A DNA stretch of 64,000 bases from Eledone cirrhosa (Eukaryota), in contig OZ024742.1 of assembly GCA_964016885.1 (NCBI GenBank), positions 17,298,001 to 17,362,000 of the forward strand, read 5' to 3'. Shown here one piece after another: positions 20,817 to 58,314 of the stretch. A program made the translations under genes and the position numbers. The number at the start of each line of letters is the position of its first letter. Position 1 is the stretch's first letter. A model generated the notes under the pieces. It had not been told where the DNA came from, searched no databases, and worked only from the letters and a program-made list of their open reading frames with translations.

Positions 20817-20848
<32 letters not shown>

Positions 20849-24354: not shown

Positions 24355-24565
24355 TGGCAGAATCGGTTGAGGGTCGAACAACATGCTTAGCGGCATAGAG
24401 TAACGATTCTTTAGGTTATGAGTTCAATTCCCGCCGAGGTTAACTTTGCCTTTCATCCTTACGGGGTCGATAAAATAAAGTACCATTAATACACTGGGAT
24501 CGATATATTTGACTTTCCATTTACCCCGAAATTGTTGGCCTTTTACCTAAATCAAAAATGATAAT
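24355..24565 (+). mobile_element. tRNA-like SINE family D
   Basis: TGGCAGAATCGG head, B-box GAGTTCAATTCC, central GCCTTTCATCCTTACGGGGTCGATAAAAT. Multiple copies in the window. Confidence 0.7.
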
Positions 24566-25332: not shown

Positions 25333-25511
25333 CCATTAACAAGGTGAACTCATCAAATACTAATGTTAATGGTGTATTGGCTAGGTGGTGTTGAAGTATC
25401 AATTCTCCCCCTCTCCAGCCACCAATATTAGCGAAGAGAAAGTAAAGGACTATATACCTTCACATATAGTGATGTTGGAGGCGAGATAGATACTAAAGCA
25501 TCCAGTGCTCT

Positions 25512-28562: not shown

Positions 28563-29197
28563 CCAACCAACTGTTATTCCTTCAACTATTGTTAATCATA
28601 TAAATACAAACATACTTACAGGCACGCACTTAAACCCAAACATACACACACACATACTCAAACATACTTACACACATATTCAAACACACTTACACACGTA
28701 CTCAAACACACTTACACACATACTCAAACACACACACACACGTAGTCAAACTCACACATTGTCAACACAATATGATTTCAGTCATCATGTCTTGATATGC
28801 AAGAAAGAGTAGTTAGAAATGTTTCTTGAACACCCCTACCACCCCCACCCCACAACCATCACCCATTGTCGTAAAAAGAAAGACTCATTAAATAGTGTAG
28901 TCCGCGATACACTGTGTCTGAGTAGATGACATGAACACCTTTCATCATAAGTTTGATTAATCAAGGTTGATATACAGGTAAATATCTATAGCTCAACACT
29001 CGCAACACATCCACCCATACATACGTAGATACAGGTAGATAGAGGTAGATACAGGTAGAATGTGTATGTGAAGGCACATTCACATACACATTCTACCTTT
29101 CTTTCTCTTTGCCGCCCATTCTCATTCATAAATCGATAGATAGCTAGAAAGACGGATAGGCAGACAGGTATATAGATAGATGATAAATAGATAGATA

Positions 29198-30171
29198 GAT
29201 TTCTTTATTTGACACATGTGCGTACAAAAATGGGACATTACAAGACGTGACGGCGGGGGTTTTACATAAAAATAACTTTAACATTGATAAATAACAATAA
29301 ACTATATATAATAAAATAACAATTGAAATCGCCAATAGGGGGAACGTTACTGCAGAGTTGTTTTACAGCCCGTGGATAGAACAACCCTCAACACCTGGAA
29401 CACGTTTTGTAGGTGTTCCCGTCTTCCCTCTGTTTATCTTCCTCAACCTACAGGTTTATATACAGAGAAGGCCCATTCACTCGGGCCATTTTCTCCACAT
29501 TCATCCACCTTTCAGCGAATTTACTGGGGTGTAGCACCTCTCTCTCCACTCTCACCTTCCTTCTGAAGTGGTACTTAAAGAAGGGGATAAGTTGTTGTTC
29601 GGAGAGAAAGGTGTTTGCCCTCAGTCCTTTTAAACTCGTCCACCATATTACCTCTTTCGCCATAGCCACCAGACAGAGAAAAACCGCCTCTCCTTCATTC
29701 TTAAATGAAGGCGGCGGGATGATCCTCACGATGGACTCGGCTGACAACTGGATGCGTCCCACACGTGACAGTAGCTGTTCGACATAATTCCACAGGTCGG
29801 TCACCCCTGGGCACTGAACAATTGCGTACAGAACGGTTTCGATGTCCTGCTCGCATCTTGGACAGGTCCTTTTGGCAGGATCTCTGCCAGGGCGTCCGTG
29901 CCTGTAGATTTTGTCTCGAACTAGTAGAGCTCCTCGGTAGCACTGCCAGGCCAGAGACCTCTGGAAGTTATCCATAGGCCCTGGACGGAAAGTCCTCGCG
30001 AACAGACTTGCCAGTTCGTCCTCCTCGATGCCTACAGTTTCCCCGAGAACGTCGTCGCACTTATCCTCCATTAATCCCCTATAGAATGTCGAAGTGGAGT
30101 CTTTGCTGATTGCCGTTTCCGCTTGGTATAGGGCTGTGAGCGCCTTTCGGCACTCGAGGTGCCAGGCACCC
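29198..30171 (-). mobile_element. 5'-truncated Tx1-clade LINE (T2) in (GATA)n
   Basis: ORF2 C-terminus (AWQCYRGAL, CPRC..QC) to the stop at 29448. 3' end AAATAAAGAAATC+TATC. GATA repeats on both sides. Confidence 0.9.
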
Positions 30172-30173
30172 AT

Positions 30174-35551: not shown

Positions 35552-36920
35552 ACTTTCTTTTTATTTGCCACCAGGGCGTCAAAAGGGGGACGAGTACAAA
35601 GGGGGGAGTTTACATGCAAAGGCGTCCTCAATATGGAGGAGGCAATAACAAGATATAAAATTATGAAAATAAAATAAAATATAACAAAATAAATTTTGTA
35701 ACAAAATCCTCAATGGGGAGGAGGCGACTTGGGGGGTCGCACACGCCCCCGAAAAAAAGTGTGCAACCCTTCTCCTCAGGAGCACAGAGAGGGGATGTTC
35801 CCTTGGTCTTTCATCTTCCTCACCTATAGTCTGATGTAGAGTGAAGGCCCATTCACACGGGCCATTCTCGCCACTTTCACCCATCTTTCATAAAAACGGC
35901 TGGGGTGCAGCACTTCTCTCTCCATCCTGATCCTTCTTCCGAAATGATATCGGAAGAAACGGACCAGTTGTTGGCCAGAGAGAAAGGTGTCTGACCTCAG
36001 TCCTTTCAGACGCGTCTACCATACAACCTCTTTCGCCATGGCTATTACGCACAGAAACACCACCTCTCCTTCGTTTTTGAAAAGGGGATGCGGTTTGATC
36101 GTTACAATAGACTCGGTGGTCAACCGGATCGGTCCCACCCTTGACAGCAGTTGTTCGACATAGCCCCACAGATCGGCAATGCCCGAGCAGTGTACCAATG
36201 CGTGTGCAACGGTTTCCTCGTCGCACACGCATCTGGGACAGATCTTTTTCGAGGGGTCCCTACCCGGGCGCCCGTGTCTGTAGAGCCTTTCTCGAACGGG
36301 CAGAGCCCCTCGGTAGCACTGCCAGGCCAGTGACCTCTGGAAGTTATCCATGGGTCCCGGGCTGAATGTCCTACCGAACAGGTTGGCCAGTTCGTCTTCC
36401 TCCATTACTAGGGATTCTCCGAGGGCGTCGTCGCACCCGCTAACCACCAGCCCTCTATAGAATGACGAGGTGGATTCTCCACTGACAGCCGGGTCCGCCT
36501 GCCAGAGAGCCGTGAACGCCTGGGCACACTCGGTGTGCCAGGCGCCCAGTTTTCTCGGTCTTTGCTTGACCCAAGATTGCAGCTCGGTGAGTGAGACGAG
36601 TCTGGGAAAGGCTCGCCTCACAAACGGGGCCCACACCGGTTGACCGGTGAGGAATACCTGGAGGTGTTGTAGCCTTAATGCGTGTTTACGTATCATTAGC
36701 CACGGCATCCCCAGCTTTCCTTTCGAAGGGTGTTGACAGCAGATGGATCTCCTCACCATAGGAGCCCGTGCCTGTAGATCTTGTCTCGAACAGGTAGAAC
36801 TCCTCGGTAGCACTGCCAGGACAGGGACCTCTGGAATTTATCCATAGGGCCCGGGCAGAAAGTCCTACCAAACAGACTAGTGAGCTCGTCGTCTTCGACA
36901 CCCAGAGTCTCCCCGGGCAC
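35552..36920 (-). mobile_element. 5'-truncated, chimeric Tx1-clade LINE (T4) in GATA/GGTA repeats
   Basis: ORF2 C-terminus 35820-36765 is T1-like; 36765-36920 repeats an internal ORF2 segment resembling T2. AGATAGAT on the left, (GATA)/(GGTA)n on the right. Confidence 0.85.
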
Positions 36921-37329
36921 GTGTATATGTATTGAGATAGATAGATAGGTAGGCAGATAGATAGGTAGGTAGGTAGGTAGGTAGGTAGGTCGGTAGGTAG
37001 GTAGGTAGGTAGGTAGGTAGGTAGGTAGGTAGGTAGGTAGGTAGGTAGGTAGGTAGGTAATGTGTGGCTGTAGATTACATTAGTTTGATTTCCTATTTCA
37101 TGTTGTTCCACATATACCTACACTATTGGTGATAACACGGCATACATTTCTGTGCTAGATGTACAATGCCATGTGTATTTACACTACAAGTTCATAATCT
37201 TCTCTAAAGATTTCTACATCCAAGATGTACCACAAACTGGAGGAATAAAAGGCGATGAAACATCCGTACCGATGTATCAATAAATAATAATAATAAAAAT
37301 ATCTTTCGTTTTCTTAAAACTTGAATTAA

Positions 37330-37937: not shown

Positions 37938-37967
<30 letters not shown>

Positions 37968-37970
<3 letters not shown>

Positions 37971-38145
37971 TGTTTCTACTTTAGGCACAAGGCCAGCAAT
38001 TACCCAGTACATAACTTGTACTTTATTTTATCTATCCCGTAAGGATGAAAGGCAAAGTTAACCTCGGCGGAATTTGAACTTAGACCGCAAAGGGACGTAA
38101 CTATGCTGGAAAGCATGGCGTCCGACTCTCTACCGATACTGTAAA
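37968..38145 (-). mobile_element. SINE family D copy with (ATT)n tail
   Basis: Same body as 25512-25705. The (AAT)n at ~37940-37970 is its tail on the opposite strand. Confidence 0.7.
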
Positions 38146-38194
38146 TCAACCGCACAAGGCCAGTAATTAACCAGTGCATTACTGGTACTTTAAC

Positions 38195-38449
38195 GATTTG
38201 GAACTGCCATGAAATCATAGTCGTCCCGATTGTCATAGGTGCACTAGCTACTATCTCAAAGAGTTTCCAATGATGGTTAAAAAAGATTAGTCCAGCCCAG
38301 CTTTTTGGAACACTTCAAAAGGCAAGCTTGCTGGGAACAGCAAGAATCCTCCGATACGTCCTGAATATCTGAGGCTGCAGGTAGCGGCTTAATATTCATT
38401 TCAACAAACTTTCCAGTTAAATAACATCAATGACTGAGACTCAAAGAAC
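38195..38449 (+). mobile_element. R4/Dong-type LINE family B, short 3' fragment with (AAT)n tail
   Basis: Closely matches 48718-48971 (GATTTGGAACTGCCATGAA...GACTGAGACTCAA). Followed by (AAT)n at 38450-38533. Confidence 0.85.
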
Positions 38450-38535
<86 letters not shown>

Positions 38536-38795
38536 TTTCTTTATTAACCACAAGGGTTTACATAAAGTAGACATTAAGGACAGTGCAGGACAATGCAGGA
38601 CGGTACAAATGGGCATTTCTGCGTGTAAAAAAACAAAAACAGAGGATGTAACAAAAATAACAATGAAAATAACAATGAAAAATTCCCCAATAGGGGGGAG
38701 ACTTCGGAGGGACATTTGTGGAGAAAGCCCAGTAAAAAGCCACAATGACCCTGACCACCAAGGCAAGTGCCCTCTCCCAGTTTTCCACCTTTAGT

Positions 38796-41700
38796 TTACA
38801 GATATATACTCAGAGTCGGCCCATTCACTCGGGCCATTCTTGCTTCTCTCACCCATCTTTCAACAAAATGCTGGGAAGAGAGCACTTCCTTCTCTACTCT
38901 GATTTTCCTTTTCAAATGAAATTTGAAAAAGTCAATCAGAGCATCACCGAAGAGGTAAGTGCTCGTCTTCAGCCCTTTCAAACGTGTCCACCATACTATC
39001 TCTTTCGCCATGGCCACCAGACAGATAAAAACTGCCTGCCCTTCCCGGCTAAAGGAGGAGGGCGGGGCAATCCTCACGATAGACTCAGATGATAGCTGGA
39101 TCCGTCCTAAACGCGACAGCAGGTGTTCGACATAAACCCACAAGTCAGCAATTTTCGGACACTGGACGAGTGCGTGCATGACGGTTTCGTCGCCCTGCGC
39201 GCATCTCGGACATGCCCGGCTGACGGCACCTCCATGCCTGTAGAGTTTATCCCGAACTGGCAAGGCTCCTCGGTAGCACTGCCAGGCCAGAGATTTCTGG
39301 AAGTTGTCCATAGGCCCTGGTCCGAAAGTTCTTCCGAAGAGATTGGCTAGTTGATTTTCGTTGACGCCTAGAGTTTCCCCAAGTACGTCGTCGCTCTTCC
39401 CCTCCACTAATCCTCTATAGAACGCCGAGGTGGAGTTTCCACCGATCACATTGCCCGATTGGTCGAGGGCTGTGAGCGCCTGAAGACATTCCAGTCTCCA
39501 GGCGCTCCCTCTCGGTCTTCGCTTGACCCAGGACTGCAGCTCCGTCAAGGAAACGAGCTGGGGAAAAACGCGTCTAGCAAACGGCGACCACACCTGATCA
39601 CCGTCGAGGAAGAGGTGGAGATGTCGTAGCCTGAGCGCGTGCCTGCGCATCATCAGCCACGGCATGCCCAGCCCTCCACGTAGCGGGTGTTGACAACAGA
39701 TGGACCGCCTGACCATCGGAGCACGTCCCTTCCACAAAAAGCGAAAGAGCAAACGCTCCAGCGCAGTCAGGCGAGGCTTAGGACAAGGTACGACGGTTAG
39801 GCGGTAGCAGATGACAGACGCGATGTACGCGTTAGCCACCTCCGCTCGACCTTTCAGGGATAGCTTCCTCTCCGCCCATTTCTGGGTGAGAGAAGCCACC
39901 CTGCTCGTCACCTCGTCCCAGTTTTTGTCCGTCTGGAGGTCCGGACCGAACCAGACCCCTAGCAATTTAACCGGTCCGTCCGTCCAGCGCCCGACGACGC
40001 TGTTGGACGGCATGGACCTGCCTCTCCAGGTGCCGAGCTGCAGGCCCACTGACTTTTCCTGGTTGATCATTGCTCCTGTCACCGCTTCGTATTCTCTTAG
40101 TGTAGTGCCGATCGCCTCGATGTGTTTGGCGTTCGACACCACTACGGTGACATCGTCCGCATATGCTGACACGGATCTTCCGCATCCTAGTTTGCGCGGG
40201 ACTCCCCTCAACGTCTCCAGTTTGTGCAGTAATGGCTCGAGAGTCAATACGTACAAGAGGGACGAGAGGGGACATCCTTGGCGGACCGAGCGCATGATGT
40301 TGAACGGTTCCGACAGGTGACCGTTCACTCTCACCACAGAGCAGATGTCGCTGTGCATGGCAGCGATCCAGCCTCTGAAGACGGGCCCAAAGCCAGCCGC
40401 CCTCAGGACTGCCGCTAGGTAACGATGGTCGACCCTATCGAAAGCTTTCGACTGATCTAAATTGATCAAGGACCCACCCGTGCCAGGTTCTCTAGCTACC
40501 CTCTCTACGATGTATCGCATGAGGTGGAGGTTGTCGTGGATGGATCTGTCGGGAATGGCGCATGTCTGCGCCTCTCCCACCAGACCACCAACGACAAGCG
40601 CCAACCTCTTTGCTAGCACCTTGGCCAAAATCTTAAACTCTGTGTTTAGCAGAGTTATGGGCCGGAAATTGTCTATGTTATCCCCCTTGTTCGGATCCTT
40701 TCTCAGCAGTGCCACCGCTCCTCGGCTCACAGAACTGAGAATTCTCCCGTTCTGTTGCCAGTTGCAGTAGACGTCCGCCAAGAGGCCTCCGAACAAGTCT
40801 GGCATCTGTACGTAAAGTTCATAGGGCAGACCATCCAAACCAGGCGATTTACCCCTTGTGCAGCCAGTCATTGCCTCCCGTACTTCAGCGGCTGTTATCG
40901 GCTTTTCGCAACACTTCGCCTCAGTGGCCGAGAGCCGCGGCAGTCCGTCGAGGTAGACACTAAAGTCCATCCCTCTACCCGGCCCACCGCTGCCCCCGAA
41001 CAGCTGAGCGAAGTGTCGCTGAAAAGCTTCACACATTTTCCCGGGATCGAGTAGCATGCGCCCGTCGTGGTCCACCAAAGACCGGATCGTGGCTTTGTTG
41101 CCACGACGCGCCTCCGCCACTCGGGCCCATTGAACGGCTTTCGTCCCCTCGTGTCTGAGAGCACGCACCCTTGCTCTGACAACGCAGCCTTCGTGCTTTG
41201 CATTGAAGAATTGGTCAAGGGCCAATTTCGCCGCAAGCACGTCGGTCGCAATGCCTTTGCTAAGCGCCTCGTCTAATTTTCTAACTAGTTCTCCCTCTGC
41301 TCTATTTTTCTCTATTGCTAAAGCCTTACTAAATCTAATCGATTCTATTCTAATCGCTCTTTTCAGAGCAAACCACCACTTGTTGTTGACGATGGCCCCC
41401 GTCAACGCCCGCTTAACTAGTTCGCTAATCCGGTCTCTGTAGGCCTTGCGCGCTGGTAAGGACGCGTTTAGCTTCCAGTAGCCGGGTCCTCGTCTATGAA
41501 GCCTATCTAAGTCAAGCACACAGATCACGAATTTGTGGTCCGTGTAGCTGACTATCTTGAATTGTGGACAGCCTATGCTAGACCTATCTATTTCCCTACA
41601 AAATACTCTATCTAGATATGATCTGGATGACCCTATGCGGTTTGTCCAAGTCCACATTGGCACATTCGGGAAATCCAATCGGTACCTGTCAGATAGTTCA

Positions 41701-42215
41701 AAACGCCTGAGCAGGTTGGTGAGGCTCTTGCACCCTCCACCCCTATCCGCTAATCCCACACAGTCCCAGCGTGCATCTAAGATCCCGTTCCAGTCGCCCA
41801 CTAACACTAAAGAGCGCGACGTTCCAAGAAAGGTCTCCAGACGCCGGAAGAAATCAGGCCGCCCTGCTCCTGTCGGGGCATAGACGGCCACTAGCCTGAA
41901 AGCTTGCCCGTCTCCGCTGGTCACGTCCAGCACCACCAGCTTACCCTCTGGGTCCAGGAAGATGGCCCGTATGGCGAGATCCAAACCTCTCCGAAAAAGT
42001 ACAGCATCTCCTCCACCGGATCCAGGACGGCTGGGAGATGCGTACACATCGTAGCCGCCGAAGATCGGTGCGAAGGTCCGTGCTTCGGAGATTCTGGTCT
42101 CGCTGATGGCCACTACATCTATGTTTAGTGACCTGAGGTCGTTGAGCAGGTGACCCTGCTTCCATGACGACCCCAAGCCACGCGCATTTATGCTGCCTAT
42201 TCTGAGTGAGGTCAT
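38796..42215 (-). CDS. LINE ORF2, 1139 aa: APE endonuclease, reverse transcriptase, C-terminal CCHC
   Basis: GSINARGL, ISET, VGDWN, SYLDRV, TDH; KSPGLDG, FRPITLLN, DQSKAFDRV, QGCPLS, AYADD, LLGV; CPRC..ETVMHALVQC. Confidence 0.95.
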   Translation of the reverse strand: MTSLRIGSINARGLGSSWKQGHLLNDLRSLNIDVVAISETRISEARTFAPIFGGYDVYASPSRPGSGGGDAVLFRRGLDLAIRAIFLDPEGKLVVLDVTSGDGQAFRLVAVYAPTGAGRPDFFRRLETFLGTSRSLVLVGDWNGILDARWDCVGLADRGGGCKSLTNLLRRFELSDRYRLDFPNVPMWTWTNRIGSSRSYLDRVFCREIDRSSIGCPQFKIVSYTDHKFVICVLDLDRLHRRGPGYWKLNASLPARKAYRDRISELVKRALTGAIVNNKWWFALKRAIRIESIRFSKALAIEKNRAEGELVRKLDEALSKGIATDVLAAKLALDQFFNAKHEGCVVRARVRALRHEGTKAVQWARVAEARRGNKATIRSLVDHDGRMLLDPGKMCEAFQRHFAQLFGGSGGPGRGMDFSVYLDGLPRLSATEAKCCEKPITAAEVREAMTGCTRGKSPGLDGLPYELYVQMPDLFGGLLADVYCNWQQNGRILSSVSRGAVALLRKDPNKGDNIDNFRPITLLNTEFKILAKVLAKRLALVVGGLVGEAQTCAIPDRSIHDNLHLMRYIVERVAREPGTGGSLINLDQSKAFDRVDHRYLAAVLRAAGFGPVFRGWIAAMHSDICSVVRVNGHLSEPFNIMRSVRQGCPLSSLLYVLTLEPLLHKLETLRGVPRKLGCGRSVSAYADDVTVVVSNAKHIEAIGTTLREYEAVTGAMINQEKSVGLQLGTWRGRSMPSNSVVGRWTDGPVKLLGVWFGPDLQTDKNWDEVTSRVASLTQKWAERKLSLKGRAEVANAYIASVICYRLTVVPCPKPRLTALERLLFRFLWKGRAPMVRRSICCQHPLRGGLGMPWLMMRRHALRLRHLHLFLDGDQVWSPFARRVFPQLVSLTELQSWVKRRPRGSAWRLECLQALTALDQSGNVIGGNSTSAFYRGLVEGKSDDVLGETLGVNENQLANLFGRTFGPGPMDNFQKSLAWQCYRGALPVRDKLYRHGGAVSRACPRCAQGDETVMHALVQCPKIADLWVYVEHLLSRLGRIQLSSESIVRIAPPSSFSREGQAVFICLVAMAKEIVWWTRLKGLKTSTYLFGDALIDFFKFHLKRKIRVEKEVLSSQHFVERWVREARMARVNGPTLSIYL

Positions 42216-42250
42216 GTTTAAAATAGAGTGGAAAAGATGGGAAAGACCAC

Positions 42251-44374
42251 TTACCGTACTTTTGGTAGAGGAGGGATGGTTTTTACATCCCTTTTCACTT
42301 GATCGTCTGGTGAAGGGACCGTTGAATCGTCCCTTCGGCTGGTCGTCGGCTCTTCTAAGAGAATGTCTGAGTATACTCTTCGATTGATGGTTCCTCCTAG
42401 GTCCCTGAAATCACCAACTGCGTTGGGGAATTTCGTTTTAATATTTGTGTATTGTTTCTGTGCTATTTTTAGCAGTCTTATGTTAGTTGGCGTTTTGATT
42501 GGTGCTGGTATTATGTAGTCCTGTTGTGAAATGTCTGTGTGTTCAATTATGTAAGTCATTAGTTTCTTGTTGTGTGTATTTATTGCCGTGCATTTGTTTT
42601 TCTGGGGGTGGGGTGTGGTTCTGCTATTTTCTTGTCGTTGTTGCTGGGTGTGTGTGTTTTGTTGTTGTGTTTGCGATGTTGGTGCTTGTGGTGGTGGTGT
42701 TGAAGGTGTTGTTGGCGGTGGGGTTGTCGCCGGTGGTGATGGTGGCGCTAGTGTGGGTGGTGATGGTGTTGGTGTTGTTGCTGCTGTGGGTCTCTTTGCA
42801 GTAGACTTTACCCTTTTCTCATTTCTTTCCTCCCTTTTCAAAGGCGACGATGCGCTGCTTCTGCGTTTGTGCCTTCTTACGACCTTTTGCCATCTCTCTC
42901 CCACCTCACACTCCATGTCTGATTCTGTGAGGTCGGGGAGGGGTACCAACTCCACTCTTTCACTTGTTGTTGTTGGTGATGTTTGCACTGGAGTCTCTGT
43001 TGCAGCTGCATTTGGTATTGCTGTTGTTGTTGTTAGTATTTCCACTGCTGCTGCTGTTTTTGATTTCCGTGGAGTGGGTATGGGTGCCACGGGCCTATCG
43101 TTCCTGGTTGCCGCTTGTCCTGTTGCTGGTAGCCGTGGAGCCGGATTCGGAAGGAGGGGGGTTTTCTCCTTTCTCAGGGTCTTCTCGTTGCAGAAGGCCC
43201 TGAGGTGAGTCTTCGATCCACAGCGAAAGCATTTCGGGCGTTTGCCCTCAACACTTATGGGCAGTTGAGTGCCGTTATCGAAGTCTATCACATCCGGGAT
43301 AGCTTCGATGCACTCCTGGTTGGTTTGGATTAGCATCTCAATGGAGGAGCCGACCCAATCTTCTCTTACTTTTTTCTGTACTTGCAGTACAGTTGTTTTG
43401 TCCTCGATTCCGACGAGGACAGACGCGGCCAGCCAAGAAGGGGTCATTCCGGGGGGGACGTGGGTCAGTTTGACCCTCACAATTTTTTGCCCACAGTAGG
43501 AGGGCACCAACACCATTTCCTCGCTCCTTAGGGTCACTACTGATTGGGCCTTTGCCTCCTGGGGTGTGGAAAAAAGTACGTCTACGGTGGCATATTTTTT
43601 GCCTCGGGTGATGTGCGTTTTCCGCTGCCACACAGACCCCAAGGCTTTTTGTATTTGGGCCTCTGTGGCTCTTTCCACCCTACGGGATTTTGTACTTACT
43701 GTACGGTACGTGACCGTACAGTGCTCTTGGGTTTCGAAAAATTTTTTCGCTGCCTTGCAGATTGCTCGGTGTCCGTTCTTTGTCACCATCTTCTTCGCTT
43801 CCTCTAATTCCTCATTTGTTATGAGGATTGTTTCCAAGTTTTTCGCAATACCTGCAAATGAGATTGGTTTTTCTCTGCTGTTGTTGTTGTCGTCAGAGCT
43901 GCTGGTACTTTTGTTGCTGCAGGTACTACGACTACTGCCTCCGCCGCTGTTGCTGTGGTTGTTGTTGGTGTTGCTGCTGCTAATGCTGTTGTTGTTTATG
44001 CTGCTGGTGATGCTGTTGCGGCTGCTACTGTTGTTTTCATTGTCACTGTTGCTGTTGTTATTACGGCTGCTACTGCTATTATTCCTGACGTCAGACGAAT
44101 GAACTGGGTTTTCGTATTTCCCGCACACCTGTTTCGTCGCTGTCGTCGTCGTCGTGGAGAAACCTTGCACGCTTTGCACGAGACTTTTCTTTTCTTTCGT
44201 CGCTTGCGAAAGAGAAGGGAGGGAGAGAGACACATTTAAAGAAGGGAGGGAGAGAGACAATCTTCTCTCTGCTGTAGTGATGATTGAGGAAGAAGACGGA
44301 ATGAGTGGGAGTGACGTATGAAATTTCTTTTTGGTAGCCATGTTTTTTTGTTTAAAATGAAATTTTGGGTACAA
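42251..44374 (-). CDS. LINE ORF1 (gag-like, CCHC knuckle, low-complexity N/S and T/P tracts)
   Basis: 707-aa open frame with CFRCGSKTHLRAFC. The real start may be the MATKKK methionine. Confidence 0.85.
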   Translation of the reverse strand: MYPKFHFKQKNMATKKKFHTSLPLIPSSSSIITTAERRLSLSLPSLNVSLSLPSLSQATKEKKSLVQSVQGFSTTTTTATKQVCGKYENPVHSSDVRNNSSSSRNNNSNSDNENNSSSRNSITSSINNNSISSSNTNNNHSNSGGGSSRSTCSNKSTSSSDDNNNSREKPISFAGIAKNLETILITNEELEEAKKMVTKNGHRAICKAAKKFFETQEHCTVTYRTVSTKSRRVERATEAQIQKALGSVWQRKTHITRGKKYATVDVLFSTPQEAKAQSVVTLRSEEMVLVPSYCGQKIVRVKLTHVPPGMTPSWLAASVLVGIEDKTTVLQVQKKVREDWVGSSIEMLIQTNQECIEAIPDVIDFDNGTQLPISVEGKRPKCFRCGSKTHLRAFCNEKTLRKEKTPLLPNPAPRLPATGQAATRNDRPVAPIPTPRKSKTAAAVEILTTTTAIPNAAATETPVQTSPTTTSERVELVPLPDLTESDMECEVGERWQKVVRRHKRRSSASSPLKREERNEKRVKSTAKRPTAATTPTPSPPTLAPPSPPATTPPPTTPSTPPPQAPTSQTQQQNTHTQQQRQENSRTTPHPQKNKCTAINTHNKKLMTYIIEHTDISQQDYIIPAPIKTPTNIRLLKIAQKQYTNIKTKFPNAVGDFRDLGGTINRRVYSDILLEEPTTSRRDDSTVPSPDDQVKRDVKTIPPLPKVR

Positions 44375-44554
44375 AACCCCAATAACTGGTTATTTAACCC
44401 CGAAGGGCCAAATAACGGACAGAAAGACCCCTCTCACGAGGAGGAGGGTGTCTTTATCAACAATTTGGTTCAAGTTTTAAACAATTTACAATTGTTTTAA
44501 CGGTTAAAAATTACTATACCTTACAGAGCCGAGCCTCCGTCAACCATGGCATTC

Positions 44555-44592
<38 letters not shown>

Positions 44593-44604
44593 TAAAAAAA
44601 AAAT

Positions 44605-47600
44605 AAACATCCCGAAAACAGAGGCTATATTGACAGTAACAAACTAGCCAATATACGAAGAAATATTGTAAGAAAAAAGTTACTAACTGATATAGAAATT
44701 GATCAGATTAAGCTATTAGCACAAAGTCAGCGAAGGGAAAATGAAACATGTGTCAGTGAAAACGAGGTAAACTGTAACACTTCGAATCCCAGGGTTGGGG
44801 CGGAATCACTGGCAACAGAACAAATTAAAGAAAGGATCGAAAAAGTGGAGGGAGTGCATGCTCAGGATGAAACTCCAAATGAAAATAATGAGATCGTAAA
44901 TGATAAAGAAATGAATGAGAATGAACTTGCCAACTTGAAGGATGAAATTATGATCGAATGGATGAAAATGAAAGAATCTGACATGGGGCAACGAGACACC
45001 CTCCCTAAGATCCAGAACTCCAAACAGAACCAAAAGATAATACACAAGACTAACATAATTCTCAAAAACATTATCATCACAAACAAACTAAACATTACTG
45101 ATTTAAATCATCTCTATTATGCATCGGCTAAAGTCACCACTCACTTATGTGGAGTGAAGATGAAAAAACAAAGGAATTCCCACAAGAAATCTACTTGGCA
45201 AGAGAACATCAATCGCCAAATAAACCTTCTCCGATCTGACATAGAAATTTTAACAAACTATAAAGTAGGTGAACATGTTAAACAAACTAAACTTAGAAAA
45301 TTGAAAAAAAAGTACAGTATAAAATCAACATGTGACATAGACATGCTGATAGAAATAATCAAGCAAAAAGTGTCGGCCAAAGCTGCTCGTATAAGGCGCT
45401 TTGAAAAACGATCTAGATTCTATAAGGACAATAATATGTTCAAAAACAACCAAAGAAACTTCTACAGAAAAATTGGTAAGTCAACAATAACTGCTAAATC
45501 AATACCACCCAAGGAGGAAGTGCAAGAATTCTGGGAAAAGATCTGGGCCGAAGAAAAAGTTCATAACATACATGCCCCATGGATAGACAGACAAATGAAA
45601 GATACAGCTCACCTTGAGGAACAAACATGGGAAAATATAACAGTTGAACAGTTGCGCTTGGCTCTAAGAAAAACCAGCAAATGGAAATCCCCAGGAAAAG
45701 ACAAAATACAAAACTTTTGGATAAATGCCTTCACAGAGTCTCATGAGCTGTTAGCCCAACTTTACAATGAAATAGTTAAGGAGCCAGAAAAGATACCTTC
45801 ATGGCTAGTTAACGGCATTACATTCCTGCTTCCGAAGAATGATGAGACAAACAATCCCAAAAATTACAGACCGATAACTTGCTTGACCACAATGTATAAA
45901 ATTTTAACATCAGTCCTAACTGAATACACATATGACCACCTGATAACAAATGACCTATTTCCCATTGAGCAGAAAGGGTGTAAACGAGGCTCATATGGCT
46001 GTAAGGATCAGCTTCTGGTTAACAAAATGATACTGGAAGATTGTCATAATAGACACAAAAATCTATCGATTGCTTGGATAGATTATAAAAAAGAATTTGA
46101 TAGTTTGCCACACAGTTGGATTGAAAAATGTTTAGAGATTTTCAAAATATCCCCCGTTGTCAGGAGGTTTTTGTCATTCAGTATGAAGACATGGAAAACG
46201 ACACTCCTTTTGAATAGTGAAACAAAATCACTGGAAGCTGGAGAAGTTAATATTAATTATGGAATTTTTCAGGGTGACTCTTTATCACCGCTTTTATTCT
46301 GCATCGCACTTATACCATTAAATAAAATGCTCAATGAAACAAAACATGGATATAAAGTCTATGACAAAACCATTAATCACCTGTTCTACATGGATGACCT
46401 GAAACTATTTGCAAAAAATGATGAACAATTGCAAGGGCTATTATCCACTGTGAAGCAGTTCAGTGATGACATTAAAATGGAGTTTGGACTATATAAATGC
46501 GCCAAAGCAACGTTCACCAGAGGAAAGCTGCTGAAGAGTTCAGACATTAATCTTGATCGGGGGAACGTGATAAGAGAACTTGATCAAGAAAAAACTTACA
46601 CATTTCTAGGTGTTTGTGAAGGAGACGGAATCAAGCACTCGACAATGAGGGAAAGGATAAGGAAGGAATGTTACCGCAGAGTAAGAGCAATCTTAAGAAC
46701 GGAATTGAATGCAAGGAATAGGATCGATGCCATAAACACGCTTGCCATACCAGTAGTAACCTACAGTTACAATGTCATCAACTGGTCAAGCACAGAGATC
46801 CGTAGGCTCGATACAAAAATTCGAAAATTCTTAACCATGCACAGAATGCATCACCCTAAGGCAGATATAGATAGAATATATCTCCCTAGGAAAGAAGGAG
46901 GGCGTGAGTTAATCCAGTTAGACATTACGTTGAAAACTGCAACAATTGGATTATCTACATATCTAAGGGAATCACATGATTGGATGATCAAACTCGTTTT
47001 GAAACACGAAAGCATCAAAAGATCATATTCCATTACAAAAGATGCACAAAGATACAGTAATGGACTACAAATTTCAGAAGTCCCATTTACTGATGAAATG
47101 GAAAACACAGAAAAAGCAAAGCAGGTAAAAGTAACTGCAAAGAAAGAACTGCTACAGAAACTGGCTAAGAAATGGCAAGAAAAGCCTCTGTATGGAAAAT
47201 ACCCAGAGCGAGCTAACAATCCTGATGTTGACAAAACTTTAACCCATCAGTGGTTGGCATCCTCTGGACTGAAATCGGAGACTGAAGAACTGATTATATC
47301 GGCACAAGATCAGTGTCTGCCAACAAAAAATTACCAAGCCAACATAATAAAAAATGGGTGCAGCCCATTATGCCGTGTATGCAAAAAACAACCAGAGACC
47401 ATTGACCATATAATTTCAATGTGCAGTCCTATAGCTCCAACCGAATACCTAAACAGGCATGACAGAGCTGCACAATACATACATTGGATAATGTGTAAGC
47501 ATTTTGACCTGCCCCATCAAAAGAATTGGTGGGAGCATCAACCACCTCCCATACTTGAAAAAGATCACATCTCAATCTTGTGGAACTTTAGCATCCAAAC

Positions 47601-47937
47601 AGACCGAAAAATAGATGCAAACAGACCTGATATAATATTGAAAGACTTTCAAAAGAGGGTATGCCTGCTAATTGATATGTCTGTTCCAATAGACAAGAAT
47701 GTATCTATAAAAACATTTGAAAAATTGAGCAAGTATAAGGACCTGGAGATAGAAATTGGAAAAATGTGGAAATTGAGAACTAAAACAATACCAGTGGTTG
47801 TAGGCGCTCTGGGAATGATACCTAAGGGGTCTAATGATTACTTATCGCAAATCCCAGGAAACCCGCGTATAGGAGAAATACAAAAGATAGTACTAATGGG
47901 AACTGCCCATATACTAAGGAAGATTCTGTCAATATAA
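44605..47937 (+). CDS. R4/Dong-type ORF: RT, CCHC and restriction-like endonuclease (no start codon)
   Basis: The frame is open from ~44605 (KLANIRRNI..LLTDIEI). Motifs: WKSPGKD, NYRPITCL, EQKGC, GIFQGDSLSPLLF, HLFYMDDLK, CRVC..ETIDHIISMC, RHD, NRPDI..LIDMSVP..EKLSKY. Confidence 0.88.
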   Translation, partial: KHPENRGYIDSNKLANIRRNIVRKKLLTDIEIDQIKLLAQSQRRENETCVSENEVNCNTSNPRVGAESLATEQIKERIEKVEGVHAQDETPNENNEIVNDKEMNENELANLKDEIMIEWMKMKESDMGQRDTLPKIQNSKQNQKIIHKTNIILKNIIITNKLNITDLNHLYYASAKVTTHLCGVKMKKQRNSHKKSTWQENINRQINLLRSDIEILTNYKVGEHVKQTKLRKLKKKYSIKSTCDIDMLIEIIKQKVSAKAARIRRFEKRSRFYKDNNMFKNNQRNFYRKIGKSTITAKSIPPKEEVQEFWEKIWAEEKVHNIHAPWIDRQMKDTAHLEEQTWENITVEQLRLALRKTSKWKSPGKDKIQNFWINAFTESHELLAQLYNEIVKEPEKIPSWLVNGITFLLPKNDETNNPKNYRPITCLTTMYKILTSVLTEYTYDHLITNDLFPIEQKGCKRGSYGCKDQLLVNKMILEDCHNRHKNLSIAWIDYKKEFDSLPHSWIEKCLEIFKISPVVRRFLSFSMKTWKTTLLLNSETKSLEAGEVNINYGIFQGDSLSPLLFCIALIPLNKMLNETKHGYKVYDKTINHLFYMDDLKLFAKNDEQLQGLLSTVKQFSDDIKMEFGLYKCAKATFTRGKLLKSSDINLDRGNVIRELDQEKTYTFLGVCEGDGIKHSTMRERIRKECYRRVRAILRTELNARNRIDAINTLAIPVVTYSYNVINWSSTEIRRLDTKIRKFLTMHRMHHPKADIDRIYLPRKEGGRELIQLDITLKTATIGLSTYLRESHDWMIKLVLKHESIKRSYSITKDAQRYSNGLQISEVPFTDEMENTEKAKQVKVTAKKELLQKLAKKWQEKPLYGKYPERANNPDVDKTLTHQWLASSGLKSETEELIISAQDQCLPTKNYQANIIKNGCSPLCRVCKKQPETIDHIISMCSPIAPTEYLNRHDRAAQYIHWIMCKHFDLPHQKNWWEHQPPPILEKDHISILWNFSIQTDRKIDANRPDIILKDFQKRVCLLIDMSVPIDKNVSIKTFEKLSKYKDLEIEIGKMWKLRTKTIPVVVGALGMIPKGSNDYLSQIPGNPRIGEIQKIVLMGTAHILRKILSI

Positions 47938-48080
47938 GTACATCACAAGTCTAAACACTAAAGATGCATGTGTGAATATGTATGTTCTTTCTTGAACATG
48001 GCGGACCTTGTTGTCTCTTGAGGTCACTGGTTGTGACTTGGTGATAACTCGTATGAACATAAAGCAAGATAAATGCAACT

Positions 48081-48082
<2 letters not shown>
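44605..48082 (+). mobile_element. R4/Dong-type RLE LINE family A, 5'-truncated, with (AAT)n tail
   Basis: Single ORF, short 3' UTR, (AAT)n at 48083-48120, (AAT)n upstream at 44555-44586. Confidence 0.9.
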
Positions 48083-48120
<38 letters not shown>

Positions 48121-48971
48121 GAGAAAGAGCAGCCTTCAGGAAAAATCCCTTCATAGTACCTTCTTTGAGAAAACTGAATTTAGAGATCCACAGACATGCA
48201 ACTGGTTGAGAAGAGGAGACCTTAAAAAGGCTACAGAAGGAATGTTAATGGCTGCGCAGGAGCAGGCCCTCAAAACGAAGTGGTTGAAACACCATATTTA
48301 CAAGGAGGAGGCTAGCCCACTGTGCAGGATCTGTGGAGAGAGAGAGGAGACTGTGGCTCACATTGTATCCGAGTGTAAACACCTAGCCCAGACCCACTAT
48401 AAGGGCTGGAGACATGATGTGATAGGCAGGGTGATCCACTGGCACCTGTGCAAAGTAAACAATTTACCACATTCTGAGAAATGGTATGAGCATAAGCCAG
48501 AGGCGGTGATGGAGAACGATCAGGTGAAGGTGCTGTGGGATTTTAGGATACAGACGGACAAGAAACTGGAACACAATAGACCTGACCTGGTGGTTGTGGA
48601 CAAAGAAAAAAGATCGTGTCTGATTGTGGATGTGGCCTGCCCATTCGACACGAGAGTGCAAGAGAAGGAGAGGGAGAACATTAACCGATACCAGGACTTA
48701 AAGTGGGAGTTAAAAAGGATTTGGAACTGCCATGAAGTCAAAGTGATCCCGATTGTCATAGGCGCACTAGGGACTATCTCCAAAAGTTTCCAGGGATGGT
48801 TAAAGAAAATCGGCCCCTTCACGCTTTTTGGAACGCTTCAAAAGGCATGCTTGCTGGGAACAGCAAGAACCCTCCGATACGTCCTGAATATCTGAGGCTG
48901 CAGGTAGTGGCTTGATATTCATTCCAACGGACTTTCCGGTGAACTAACATCAATGACTGAGACTCAAGGAG
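48121..48971 (+). mobile_element. R4/Dong-type LINE family B, 5'-truncated (CCHC plus RLE), with (AAT)n tail
   Basis: AAQEQAL, CRICG..EETVAHIVSEC, RHD, HNRPDLVV..IVDVACPFD; stop at 48895; tail 48972-49005. The first 37 aa of the track ORF are flank and microsatellite. Confidence 0.9.
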
Positions 48972-49000
48972 TAATAACAATAATAATAATAATAATAATA

Positions 49001-49106
49001 ATAATTGCGTCTACTTTTGGCACAATGCCAGCAATTACCGAGTACATAAAGTACCAGTAATGTACTGTAAAATTACTGGCCTTGTGCCAAAAGTAGAAAC
49101 AATTAT
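49001..49106. repeat. Two head-to-head SINE D 3' ends forming an inverted repeat
   Basis: ATAATTGCGTCTACTTTTGGCACAATGCCAGCAATT versus AATTACTGGCCTTGTGCCAAAAGTAGAAACAATTAT. Confidence 0.8.
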
Positions 49107-49131
49107 TATTATAGTTATTATTATTATTATT

Positions 49132-52100
49132 CCATTGGACGCAGGAGGAAAAGGTTCGTAACATTAAGCTGTTTTAAAGTATCATTTTTTGTATTTTCTT
49201 GTCGTTAACGAAACGTAAGGTACCCACCTTGGTTCCAAGGAAGGGAGATCTCTCAATATTCGGGCTTTAAGCCCGAATATTGAGATTTATTTTTAAAAAC
49301 TTCGAAAAAAACCGCTTTTCCACAAAAAAAAAAAATATGGAAATTTTCGACCTTGAAACAGTAAAAAAGGTTGAGGTCAAAAGTTCAAAAGCAGCCACTG
49401 TAGATCTCACCACAACTACGACTACTACAGACATGTCTGTCGAACATTCCACTGAATGTGAAGGCAAAACACAAAAGCTACCATCACAACCGCTCTCTTC
49501 TGTGTTAGTAGCAATATCATCTGAAACTGACATCACCACCACTACCACCACCACCACCACCACCACCACAACAACAAAAACTCAGAGCAATAGCGACAAT
49601 AACACCAACAGCTTCAATGTAAACACGGATTGCGGTGGCAACAGCAACAACAAACAAAACAACAACAACACCAACAACAACAGCAAGAACGTCAACACCA
49701 ACAACAGGAGCAATAGAGGCAGCAAAAACAAAGCGCTTATTGAATATTGATATTAGCGATAAAGACGAACAGTTGGCCCAGATGTGGAGGTTAATTAAAC
49801 GGGAGATGTCTTGGGCAAATCTGACCATCCCGGACGGGACAATAGCGGCCATGCAAAGGAGGACGGTGTACTTTTGATGCATTTCAGTGCAGACACGCAA
49901 AGTGGAACTTGCCAGCCAAGCAGAGGTCGAGACTACTTTGGAGTGCATCGGAAGTGACATAGAGTATAAAGCAAGGGCCAAACCGTTCGGTACCATCTCG
50001 GTATATTTCAAAACCGAGGCCCTTGCTATTAAGCACTCGGTGACCCCGTGCAGAACGGAACGCATTATCATGCACCCATCCTACATGGGCAAAAGGACAG
50101 TAAAGGTCCGCATTCCCAGGATCCCACCAGGAATGAACATATGGTGGCTCCTGGGATGCGTAATCGAGGAGGGGACAGACACTACCCTCCTGAATATCAA
50201 AAGGACATAGAGAGAAGACAGGTCCGGAATGGAGAGAAGACTGATCGGGGATAGATTTTTCTCAAAATGAAACCAGAGGACATGAACAACATCCCGGATT
50301 TTGCCCGCCCACAGGACGGGACAACAATCCAACTGGTCACTGAGGGATGAAGGCCGCACTTCTTCGTCTGCGGGGAAGCAACGCATCTGCACACCTTCTG
50401 CCCGCAGCGCAAAAATGCAGAGGGTCACAAACCTCCTTTGTTGCCAACGCCAGTGTCAGCACGGAAAGCTGTACCACCACCACCAAAAACAACACCAACA
50501 AAGACACGGACACAACATCAAAAACAGCCGGACAACGACCAAAACCAATCCAAGGGGAAAACGAGGAAAGCTCTCCCACTCCCCCTACCCCTCCAATTAT
50601 ACACATAGACAAAACAATAAACGCACACACAGACACAGAGACACTCACAGCCAGCAGCGAAAATGAAGGAAAACCCAAAAGTGCAAAAAAACATAAAACT
50701 CACCTAAAAAAGCCCCAACAAAACACAAAAACATACACAACAAAAAATACAGACACCACTAACACAAACACTTCCCCAATAACATCAGCACCAACAGCAA
50801 CATCGACACCACCCCCACAATCCCCGAAACGCAAACAGCCTAAACAAACACAAGTACAAATAAACACACAAATACCTGAAATTGCAGAGACCACACCTAC
50901 AATAAACACAGACATACCCGAAACAACACCACCAAAACCATCACCACCACAGTCACCAAAACGAAAACAAATAAAGCCACAATAACAAAATGTTAAAAAC
51001 TTCGTGCTTGTCAGAAGGGCCAACGATAAACTGATGACCCTCTTAGCACGAAGCGAGGACATTCAAACAGAGGGGGAGATCTTTGAAATGAGCACATTTT
51101 GCGTGCCAGAAAATTTGCTTCTGGTCCGAATGTCACTCGATTCCTTCAAAGAAATTCGGGAGAGCTTTCCTCAAGACGTGGGAACCCCAAATGTGAAACC
51201 CACATCGAGACTTTTAAAGGGGTTCCCAAAAGAAACCCCACCAACCATGGAGGTCGAACCACCCGAACTTCACAAGACCCCGGGAGGTAAGTAAACCTTC
51301 CCTCTCTATTTTAGCTTGCCAACATGGCCATATTAAGAGTAGGAAGTTTAAATCTTCGCGGCCTGGGGTCACCCTGGAAGCAGGGTCGCCTGCTCAACGA
51401 CCTCAGGCCGCTGGAAATGGATGTGATTGCCGTTAGCGAGACCAGAATTTCTGACACGCGCGCACTAGCCCCCATTTTCGACGACTATCAGATCTTCGCA
51501 TCTGTTAGCAGGCCGGGAATGGGAGGTGGGGTGGCAGTGCTGTTTAGGAAAGGACTGGATCTCGAGGTAAGGTCGATCTTCCGGGACCCGGACGGTAAGT
51601 TGATGGTCTTGGATGTGAGCAGTAGCGAAGGTGGTGCCTTTAGACTGCTGGCCGTCTACGCCCCTACTGGGGCCGGACGACCGGACTTCTTTAGGTGCCT
51701 GGAGACCTTTCTGGGTACGTCTCGCCCTCTACTGCTAGCGGGGGACTGGAACGCCATCTTAGACGCACGCTGGGATTGTGTGGGAGTAGCTGATAGGAGC
51801 GGGGGGGGGGGTGCAAAAGCCTCAAGCACCTAATCAGCCTGTTCCAACTGTCTGACAGGTATCGACTAGATTTCCCCAATGCGCCAGTATGGGCATGGAC
51901 CAACCGCATGGGGTCATCTAGATCGTATATAGACAGGAACTTCATTAGGAAAATAGATAGAAATAGTGTAGGCTGCCCACTTTTTAAAACGTTCGCCTAT
52001 TCAAATCACAAATTTGTGATCTGTATGGTCGACCTAGATAAAACGCGTAGGTTGGGACCGGGTTACTGGAAGCTGAACATGTCATTTCCGGCACGTAAGG

Positions 52101-54965
52101 CTTACAGGAACCATGTCAACAACTTAGTTAAGCAAAAGTTGACAGGGGGATCATCAACAACAGAAGGTCGGGGGCTCTCAAAAGAGAGATTAGAGTAACT
52201 TCGATAGAGTTCAGCAAAGAACTAGCGTTAGAGAAAAATAGAAAGAAGGGGGAGCTGGTAGATAAGTTAGACGAGGCTATTTGTAGTGGCATTGCAACTG
52301 ACGTGCTAGCGGCTTGAATTGCTTTAGACCATTTCTTCAATGCGAAACACGAAGGTTGCATTGTCAGAGCTAAGGCGCGTGCGCTGAGAAATGTGGTAAT
52401 AAAACCACAATTCGGTCTTTGGCGGACCGAGACGGACACGAGATAAGCGATTCCAAGCGGATGTGTGAGGCCTTTCGCCAGCACTCTCCTCAGTTGTCCG
52501 GGGAGAGTGGCGAGTCAAAGATAGTAGCGGATTCAGTCCCTACCTTGACGACTTGCCGCGCATCACGACGATCGACGCTGAGCACTGCGAAACGCCGATT
52601 ACTTCAGGCGAAATTCAGGACTCCCTTGTCGACTGCATGAGGCGCAAGTCACCCGCTTTGGATGGCCTGCCCAACGAGTTTTACGTAAATATGCCAGACT
52701 TGTTCTCCGAACTCCTCGAAGCACTCTACTGAAACTGGCAGCAAAATGGGAGTATTCCCAGTTCTGTGAGCGGGTGAGTGGTGACGCTGATAAGGAAAGA
52801 CGAGAACAAGAGGGATACATTAGACAACTTCCGGCCCATAACTCTGCTCAGCGCAGAGTTTAAGATTTTGGCCAAGGTGTTAGAAAAGAGATTGGCGCTT
52901 GTCGTCGAGGATTTGGTTGGGGAGGCACAAACTTGCGCACTCTCATCCAGTTCCATACACGACAATCTCCAACTCATGCGATACATCATAGAGAGGGTAG
53001 GGTGTAAACCTGGCTTCGGTGGGGCACTGATCAATTTAGATCAATCGAAAGCATTCGATAGGGTTGACCATTGGTATCTGGAGTTTGTCCTCAAAGCGGC
53101 TGGTTTCGGCCCTGTCTTCAGAAGCTGGATCGCTGCAATGCACAGCGGCACACGCTCGGTGGTCAAGGTTAATGGCCACCTCTCGGAACCATTTCGGCTC
53201 TCCCGATCGGTCCGTCAAGGGTGCCCTCTCTCGTCCCTTCTGTACGTATTGACTCCCGAGCCTTTACTGCGGAAGCAGAAGCTGTTGCAGAGCATCACAC
53301 TCGAACCGGGACGTGGAAAGGCTGTGTCGGCTTCTGCGGACGACATCACCGTGATGGTGTCGGACACCTCAGAAATCGAAGTGGTCGGCACCTTATTGAA
53401 GGAATATGAAAGGTTGACAGGAGCCAAACTTAACCCGGAAAAGTCGGTGGGCTTGCAGCTCGGAACCTGGAGAGGCAGCCGTCCAACAGCGTGATAAGGC
53501 GCTGGACGGACGGACCGGTAAAGTTGCTCGGGGTTTGGTTCGGACCAGACCTCCAGATGGAAAAGAATTGGGACGAGGTAACCAGCAGAGTAGCCAGTAT
53601 ACCCAAAAATGGGCTGGGAGGAAGCTATCACTGAAAGGTCGCGCGGAGGTGGCGAATGCGTACATCGCGTCCGTCATCTACTACCGGCTGACCGTCGTGC
53701 CTTGCCCCCGTCCGCGCCTCGTCAAGTTGGAACGGCTCCTCTTCAAATTCTTGTGGAGGGGACAAGTTCCGTTGGTGAGGCGGTCCATCTGCTGCCAGCA
53801 CCCTCTACGCGGAGGGCTGGGCATGTTGTGGCTAATGATGTGCAGACATGTGTTGAGGCTGTGACACATCTACAGATATTCTGCCTAAACGGTGAACAGG
53901 TGTGGTCGACGTTTATCAGACGGGCCTTTCTGCAGCTTGTTTATTTGACTGAGCTGCAGTCCTGGGTCAAGCAGAGACCAAGGCTGGATGACTGGCACCT
54001 GGAATGTTGCCAGGCACTCACTGCCCTCTACCAAGCGGGCAATGCGATCAGTGGAACTTCCACTCTCGAGTTCTATAGAGGATTAGTGGTGGGCAAGTGC
54101 GATGACGCACTCGGAGAAGCTTTAGGCCTCGACGAAGTCGAACTGACCAGTCTGTACCGGAGGACTTTCGAGACGGGGACGATGAACAATTTCTAGAAAT
54201 TCCTCACTTGGCAGTGCTACCGGGAGGCACTGCCGGTTCAGGATAAACTCTACAGGCACGGAAGTGCTGTCAGACGGACCTGCCCAAGAGGCGAAACCGT
54301 TCTGCACGCACTTCTCCAATGTACGTGCATTACTGACTTATGGAGTTATGTCGAACACCTACTGTCGCGTGTGGAACGAATCCGGCTATCGGCCGAGACC
54401 ATAGTGAAGATAGATCCACCACCTTACTTAGGTCAAGAAGAGCAGGAAATTTTACTATGTCTGGTGGCCGTTGCGAAAGAGGTTATATGGTGGACCAGAT
54501 TAAAAGGAGTGAAGACAGACACTTTTCTATCCGGCCAATCCCTCATCAACTTCTTTAATTTCACCTGGAAAGGAAGGTGAGGGTGGAGAGAGAGAAGTGC
54601 TTCCTCCCCAGTACATTTGCTAAAAGTGGATGAATGTGGCGAGAATGGCCCGTGTGAATGGGCCTACTCTGGTCATGCGGCTGTAGGCTAGCTAACTTGA
54701 GGAGAGGGGTGCTCTCCCTGGGTGCCCTAGAAGCGCAGGGTGGTTCAGGATTGGTGGGAAACCTGAGTCACCCCAGGGTCGTCCAACTCCTATCGGGGAA
54801 TTTATTTTGTTATATTTATGCATAGTTTATTTTATATTTTTATATCTTCATTGTTAAATTAGTCTTGCCATTGTGCACTTTTACTCGACCTTATTGTAAC
54901 CCCCCACAGTCCCTGTCTTTGTATTGTCCCCTACATGTCGGCCCTTGTGGCTAATAAATGAAATC
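49132..54965 (+). mobile_element. Full-length degenerate L1/Tx1-clade LINE (T6) inserted in (ATT)n
   Basis: Fragmented ORF1 (~49337-51294) and ORF2 (51324-~54686). 3' end TAATAAATGAAATC followed by (ATT)n; (TTA)n upstream. Confidence 0.9.
51324..54686 (+). pseudogene. T6 ORF2 (APE-RT), multiply frameshifted
   Basis: GSLNLRGL, AGDWN, FRPITLL, DQSKAFDRV, QGCPLS; YADD is changed to SADD. Confidence 0.88.
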
Positions 54966-55020
54966 ATTTTTATTATTATTATTATTATTATTATAATTAT
55001 TATTATTATTATTATTATTT

Positions 55021-55089
<69 letters not shown>

Positions 55090-57270: not shown

Positions 57271-57307
<37 letters not shown>

Positions 57308-57538
57308 GGAAAAGAGACTGAACCCCGACGTCTGAGTTCCGGCCGTTTCGGATCTAGCTGTCGAAACGGCCGGAACTCAGCCGTCGGGGCCCTAACTCTT
57401 TTCCTATTACCCACTCTACTACTCTAAGTATCGAGTACTCTGGTACTATGGTCCACCTGCTTCCTTACCACACCCTCTTTGTTATATATATATATAAATA
57501 TATATATAGTTATGTAATAAACAACATAAGATAATTAT

Positions 57539-58165: not shown

Positions 58166-58314
58166 TAAGTTATTCCGGGTTGAATTGGAGGTAACCACAG
58201 TAAGTAAGGTACTCAATACATAGCAGATAATAAAAGTTTTAATATAGATGACATTCTACAGGACTAGAACTGTTTCAGTTCTAGTCCTGTAGAATGTCTT
58301 CTATCTATCTATCT

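Follow-up and report, generated by a model that had tools for sequence, protein, structure and literature searches.

Positions 37941-55019 of a 64-kb stretch of the Eledone cirrhosa genome (the window; C3:17,298,001-17,362,000 of the 3.0-Gb assembly) hold a chain of mobile elements joined at (AAT)n microsatellites. We read this chain as the work of two kinds of long interspersed element (LINE) that share one target. LINEs of the restriction-like endonuclease (RLE) type, families R4-A and R4-B, sit in (AAT)n reading AAT on their sense strand, and Tx1-like LINEs, families T5, T6 and T7, sit in it reading ATT. The two kinds likely nick opposite strands. An insertion likely divides the tract and adds repeat to it, which lets chains grow from one insertion to the next. 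We place the probability of this reading at about 0.8.

Opposite polarity across the genome

Element 3' ends were located with sequence patterns chosen without the tail, and gapped patterns were shown to work; the 30-locus samples are the first matches on contig C1, some of which share one chain. The Tx1 3' motif matched 5,576 times genome-wide, with 3,172 matches followed by (ATT)3 and 0 by (AAT)3 within 4 nt. Its first 30 loci comprised 21 of T5/T7 type (17 with at least 3 ATT units, none with AAT), 8 of a (TATC)n family and 1 in (TC)n. The R4-B 3' marker matched 9,220 times; 29 of its first 30 loci carried an (AAT)n tail and one was cut short. Where (ATT)3 stood no more than 9 nt from the end of this marker (15 matches at 14 sites), it came in every case after AAC- or AAT-type units.

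Tracts on the 5' side are the real test of targeting, because a 3' tail cannot explain them. All 30 sampled T5 5' ends (1,604 matches) were preceded by (ATT)n, and 26 of 30 sampled full-length R4 5' ends (1,574 matches) followed (AAT)n, with 0 following (ATT)n. With junctions from all collected loci de-duplicated and 5' truncations included, R4-A/B gave 113 AAT, 0 ATT and 21 neither (n = 134) and T5 gave 52 ATT, 0 AAT and 7 neither (n = 59), the last class including alignment breaks. RLE and AAT-using Tx1 families share one target in opposite polarity, genome-wide, and the opposite orientation that the original prediction had claimed for this locus was borne out as a non-random pattern.

The same junctions bear on the alternative that the tracts are 3' tails encoded by the elements, with polarity set by the RNA ends and targeting achieved by tail-primer pairing at breaks rather than by an endonuclease. 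The first units of R4-B tails are variants (AAC, AGT) that are specific to the subfamily and recur over the 100 listed junctions, which indicates that the element RNA carries repeat and that the tail is partly inherited; copies of the abundant short interspersed element (SINE) described below lie mostly outside long tracts, with just a short ATTAT end. However, full-length and truncated 5' ends follow same-polarity tracts with unrelated DNA beyond, which argues that the tract pre-dated the insertion, and the repeat used, (ATT)n or (TATC)n, differs between Tx1 families whose 3' ends are nearly identical. Encoded tails are thus an unlikely account of the pattern, and tail-primer pairing may contribute beside endonuclease targeting.

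Microsatellite polarity is a rule of each family and not of the whole Tx1 clade, because other Tx1 copies in the window, at 13914-19753 (-), 29430-30172 (-) and 35703-36922 (-), have (TATC)n or (TACC)n on their flanks. The earlier claim of a clade-specific polarity, with Tx1 always reading ATT, therefore stood for the AAT-using families and failed for these copies, as well as for the few T6-type ends that are AAT-first.

This second microsatellite, (TATC)n/(TACC)n, carries parallel chains of its own, in which the flanked Tx1 families have the same AATAAAGAAATC-type 3' end (window copies; L048, L049, L054, L059). ATT-type Tx1 3' ends are sometimes continued by (ACT)n or (AGT)n tracts (L289, L291, L046; window 55023-55088), which suggests that these ends tolerate triplets related to ATT. 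In L038, L056, L146, L240, L241, L254 and L283, (ATT)n is followed by a further unannotated family whose fixed end starts with GGCGACCTACGTAG, probably one more Tx1 5' end. A different recurring flank follows (AAT)n in L003, L025 and L175.

The chain in the window

All pieces listed by the original prediction were found in the window, with matching order, strands and tracts. A second SINE 3' piece between SINE D and the R4-B fragment was absent from that listing. The layout was as follows.

37941-37970, (AAT)10: the (ATT)n tail belonging to SINE D
37971-38151, minus strand, SINE D: abundant SINE, head slightly cut; best identity to fetched copies 92.4%
38152-38192, minus strand, second SINE 3' piece: 41 bp, without tail, covering SINE positions 127-167
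38192-38449, plus strand, R4-B 3' fragment: older subfamily, 5' side without (AAT)n; best identity 93.7%
38450-38533, (AAT)28: tract in which the 3' ends of the R4-B fragment and T5 meet tail to tail
38534-44554, minus strand, T5: full-length Tx1-like LINE; best identity 99.7%
44555-44598, (AAT)10 and A-rich linker: junction sequence found once genome-wide
44599-48082, plus strand, R4-A: RLE-type LINE without its first ~1,460 nt; best identity 99.4%
48083-48118, (AAT)12: tract between R4-A and R4-B
48121-48969, plus strand, R4-B: 3' 850 nt of the second RLE family; best identity 98.0%
48970-49005, variant units and (AAT)9: common to R4-B and the left SINE arm
49006-49101, SINE hairpin: two SINE 3' ends head-to-head, left arm minus, right arm plus
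49102-49131, interrupted (ATT)n: tail of the right SINE arm
49132-54967, plus strand, T6: full-length, decayed Tx1-like LINE; best identity 89.4%
54968-55088, (ATT)n up to 55019, then (AGT)22

Every (AAT) or (ATT) run of at least 5 units in the window lies inside the chain, with none elsewhere. Tracts 5' of 49006 are all AAT and tracts 3' of 49101 are all ATT, the hairpin being the switch point. The chain is two pads, one AAT-reading and one ATT-reading, joined at the SINE hairpin. The shared landing pad proposed earlier held in that both clades use the target, but it is not a single pad. In the left pad, four tracts total ~61 units, compared with at most 16 units in lone tracts. Nearest-copy identity rises from T6 (89%) through SINE D (92%), the R4-B fragment (94%), R4-B (98%) and R4-A (99.4%) to T5 (99.7%). 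These values suggest an insertion order in which T5 and R4-A would be the latest arrivals in the left pad. R4-B, R4-A and T5 likely inserted into a single tract, bounded by the left SINE arm and the older R4-B fragment, while T6 likely inserted into the tail of the right arm.

A chain of this kind could also arise if the assembly had wrongly joined repeats at microsatellites, and no tract was bridged by short-read contigs or restriction-site-associated DNA (RAD) reads. The strict polarity, the private truncation points and the tract lengths of 27-84 nt are nonetheless unlike mis-joins. Furthermore, 127 raw reads from another sample, stemming from other loci, carry (AAT)n directly 5' of R4-B truncated at 48814, and unique left-flank DNA was found in read runs, in a check that left out the 17 of 23 listed runs having only small shares. 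We consider misassembly very unlikely.

T5 retains two open reading frames (ORFs). ORF1 (44341-42251, 696 aa) is open and has a CCHC knuckle; ORF2 (42215-38796, 1139 aa) is open and carries an apurinic/apyrimidinic endonuclease (APE), a reverse transcriptase (RT) and zf-RVT, which Pfam matched as PF03372 (N-terminal APE), PF00078 (RT) and PF13966 (C-terminal zinc motif). ORF2 scored 291 bits against YTX2_XENLA on residues 65-900, with 30% identity over 888 aa, and 174 bits against human L1 ORF2 in a different search. By sequence, T5 appears nearer to Xenopus Tx1L than to mammalian L1, and the closest named relative of its ORF2 was an Argonauta protein (72%). T6 is 73-76% identical to T5, with its ORF2 broken into 10 frame pieces. 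A single clade of ATT-using Tx1 families was considered as a candidate; in an RT tree of 17 rows, without an L1 row and with a long branch as sole outgroup, T6 joined a (TATC)n family with support of 93/98, which falls short of the starred level.

Full-length R4-A and R4-B families are ~4.9 kb each, and both R4 copies in the window are 5'-truncated. The R4-A copy has an open frame with RT, CCHC and RPD..D..K motifs, R4-B also carries these motifs, and the two proteins are 37-41% identical. R2 proteins were the sole matches of R4-A in the PDB, and a Pfam scan of the window R4 copy found no APE. The target of both families is (TAA)n, with TAA on the sense strand. We label them Dong/R4-like from their structure, their (TAA)n target and a motif likeness to the Dong/R4 clade; named Dong, R4, HERO or NeSL sequences appeared neither among the 120 homologues listed nor in Atlas clusters. 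A hepatitis delta virus (HDV)-like ribozyme at the 5' end has reportedly been shown for Dong; at two loci with full-length R4 5' ends, Rfam gave no such match at gathering score. The first 340 nt are 79% identical between R4-A and R4-B (L124-L126, L128; C1:2.61-2.82 Mb), and the R4-A 5' region also contains a SINE 3' piece of 33-52 nt.

Other repeats in the window include near-perfect palindromes of 46-405 bp (319-723, 10864-10977, 20779-20874, 29053-29098, 57306-57406 and 58244-58304), some beside (TA)n, which are possibly fold-back or head-to-head repeat pairs resembling the SINE hairpin. A minisatellite with a 52-bp unit (15 copies, 97%) occupies 24543-25333, and a 7-bp array of 190 copies occupies 27256-28559.

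Adjacency and tract length

At least 487 R4-B 3' ends face a Tx1 3' end tail-to-tail across a tract of no more than 42 nt, with ~0.6 expected at random. The adjacency anticipated by the original prediction is therefore present genome-wide, but it shows no preference beyond the microsatellite. These junctions represent 5.3% of R4-B ends (487/9,220), or ~8% once the length cap is allowed for (20/30 tails being short enough). In an even sample of 99 evenly spaced 10-kb stretches (990 kb), the Tx1 end motif stood at 3 of 48 tracts (~6%); the two adjacency patterns differ, making the ratio rough. The elements target the repeat, not each other, and R4-B/Tx1 adjacency is the base rate of any (AAT)n tract. 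They meet because tails make up a large share of tracts. A preference for R4-B tails was considered and rejected: 10/30 compared with 5/48 gave p = 0.018, but 10/30 compared with 4/23 long tracts gave p = 0.23, and the genome-wide ratio equals the base rate.

The 48 tracts of at least 5 units in the even sample extrapolate to ~145,000 genome-wide. R4-A/B or T5/6/7 touch 19 of them, only the SINE touches 12, and 17 touch no library element. LINE-touching tracts were longer than lone tracts (median 11 and 6 units, respectively; one-sided p = 0.006), and 9 of the 12 tracts with at least 13 units touch a LINE. By eye, 25 of 30 T5 5' tracts adjoin another element. The earlier claim that insertion regenerates the target is supported indirectly by the longer LINE-side tracts, from which we infer a net gain of repeat.

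The short interspersed element

The even sample held 110 SINE pieces containing the 3' end. The last 22 nt of the SINE match T5 and T7 in register at 15/22 positions, and T7 at 19/30, a level reached by at most 4 of ~5,600-5,900 internal T5/T7 windows; the lengths were picked after the match was seen, and the comparison covered Tx1 and R4 ends. An unanchored local alignment of SINE and Tx1 ends was weak (p 0.02-0.12), and R4 3' ends showed no match to the SINE 3' end. Near-full SINE copies carried target duplications of at least 10 nt (10-28 nt) in 24 of 54 cases, compared with 2.3% in shuffled pairs, and these lengths suggest what a Tx1-type insertion would add to a tract. ATTAT begins 21 of these 24 duplications, in the strand and phase seen at the T5 3' junction. 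About 1 in 10 SINE copies lies inside a long tract (by eye). On this evidence, the SINE is likely mobilised by Tx1 machinery whose specificity is relaxed, and it can likely seed ATT tracts.

The arms of the hairpin are two SINE 3' ends placed head-to-head, each with its tail outward. Head-to-head pairs occurred once among the 110 3' pieces of the even sample and four times among 38 at targeted loci, two of these being one duplicated event. The stable fold of the hairpin (z -10) arises because it is an inverted SINE pair; a microRNA or other RNA gene was rejected, all Rfam matches being sub-threshold. SINE D may belong with the OK/OR-type SINEs of octopus, whose head is tRNA-derived; neither ARAGORN nor Rfam gave a tRNA match.

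Proposed mechanism and its limits

In target-primed reverse transcription, the nicked strand is the one opposite the sense strand of the element. Combined with the observed polarity, this model predicts that Tx1 elements would nick the AAT strand and R4 elements the ATT strand. The Tx1 APE would leave ...ATAAT-3'OH on the AAT strand, and the RLE endonuclease would cut the ATT strand of the same tract. Each insertion would split the tract and leave repeat on both sides, creating a new landing site for the next element. Repeat units may be gained via target duplication, RNA-carried repeat and slippage.

Several observations weigh against this reading. T6-type 3' ends (2,781 matches) are looser, with 21 of 30 followed by ATT, 6 by 1-2 ATT units and 3 AAT-first. 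Two sampled tracts have a wrongly oriented R4-B piece (L226; L230, 76% match), of which the one at L226 is likely a 5' inversion. One chain (L220) contributes 6 of the 19 LINE-touching tracts in the even sample. The junctions at 38151/38152 and 38192, both edges of the second SINE piece, have no tract. LINE target duplications could not be read directly at junctions because they fall inside the repeat, and we infer both net tract growth and insertion order. Finally, tandem copies occur: at C1:131.99-132.02 Mb, a unit that pairs R4-A, marked by one private deletion, with the same R4-A fragment is present four times, and at C1:55.42-55.46 Mb a unit of T5 plus an R4-A fragment is present twice.

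Such copies raise the alternative that chains grow mainly via tandem duplication, unequal exchange at tracts or read-through co-mobilisation of neighbours, as do L069/L070 and L288/L290, which are duplicated composites. In the window, however, no chain element copies another (R4-B pair 87%, T5/T6 76%), the R4-A 5' junction occurs at only one of 11 sites with nearby truncation points, and nearest-copy identities spread over 89-99.7%. Tandem duplication lengthens some chains elsewhere, but not visibly the 37941-55019 chain, and as the main source of chains it is very unlikely. Five full-length T5 copies stand head to tail in a tandem array in the C1:131.99-132.02 / 55.42-55.46 Mb set.

Beyond successive insertion into a shared tract, we advance a wider reading only tentatively. 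RLE and APE clades would nick opposite (AAT)n strands in a dispersed, self-feeding niche, with the abundant SINE as a Tx1 passenger that seeds ATT tracts and, through head-to-head pairs, polarity switches. Mobile elements would then make most long (AAT)n tracts, and a radiation of Tx1 families that switched target between (ATT)n and (TATC)n would form a natural series for mapping APE specificity.

Comparison with known systems

RLE clades and their targets are covered in PMC4640811. Active LINE groups in Octopus include Dong-R4 and L1-Tx1 (PMC13282606, PMC9115989, PMC8967140), and in O. vulgaris no recently active LINE group is larger than Dong-R4 (PMC13282606 Table 1). Octopus transposable element (TE) hotspots have been described without a target mechanism, the words 'target' and 'nested' being absent from the available text (PMC13282606). 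With the system described here, TE clusters and long (AAT)n tracts in octopus gain an explanation at the level of sequence, and a major octopus SINE gains a candidate LINE partner. Young intact elements such as T5, with both ORFs open, would allow two unrelated endonucleases to be tested on opposite strands of one repeat. It also calls for caution with octopus (AAT)n markers, whose flanks are often multicopy.

A literature search found no description of Tx1 in (ATT)n, no microsatellite target shared by RLE and APE clades and no Tx1 partner for an octopus SINE, although Repbase Reports, subscription papers and supplements may hold some. The available text of PMC4758252, PMC3124438 and PMC3747384 had nothing on a shared (AAT)n system.

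Each ingredient has precedent, and specialists may find the system neat rather than startling. In Bombyx mori, the R4-clade element Dong is likewise of RLE type with a single ORF, and (TAA)n precedes it on the sense strand (PMC3774820). The Eledone arrangement differs in that Tx1 elements occupy the repeat as well, alongside two distantly related RLE families (37-41% protein identity), and in that chains are formed. Tx1 families in microsatellites include Kibi in (TC)n, Koshi in (TTC)n and crocodilian families in (TTCC)n/(TTTC)n (PMC4494074), which resemble those described here in having APE and RT, two ORFs and a simple-repeat target. The (ATT)n and (TATC)n targets are unnamed in the available text of that article, and here an RLE clade uses the target too. 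The crocodilian SINEU is thought to ride on Tx1-Mar machinery, as inferred from a shared target (PMC4494074); the SINE D link consists instead of an in-register 3' match and ATTAT-starting duplications, with SINE D mostly outside long tracts. TRAS and SART lie in opposite orientation in (TTAGG)n telomeric repeats and form arrays (PMC10088271), giving a similar arrangement of two families in one simple repeat. Both are R1-clade APE elements at telomeres, whereas here RLE and APE clades meet in a dispersed microsatellite at thousands of sites. The Eledone system extends the TRAS/SART arrangement across clades and across the genome, and its elements are of known kinds.

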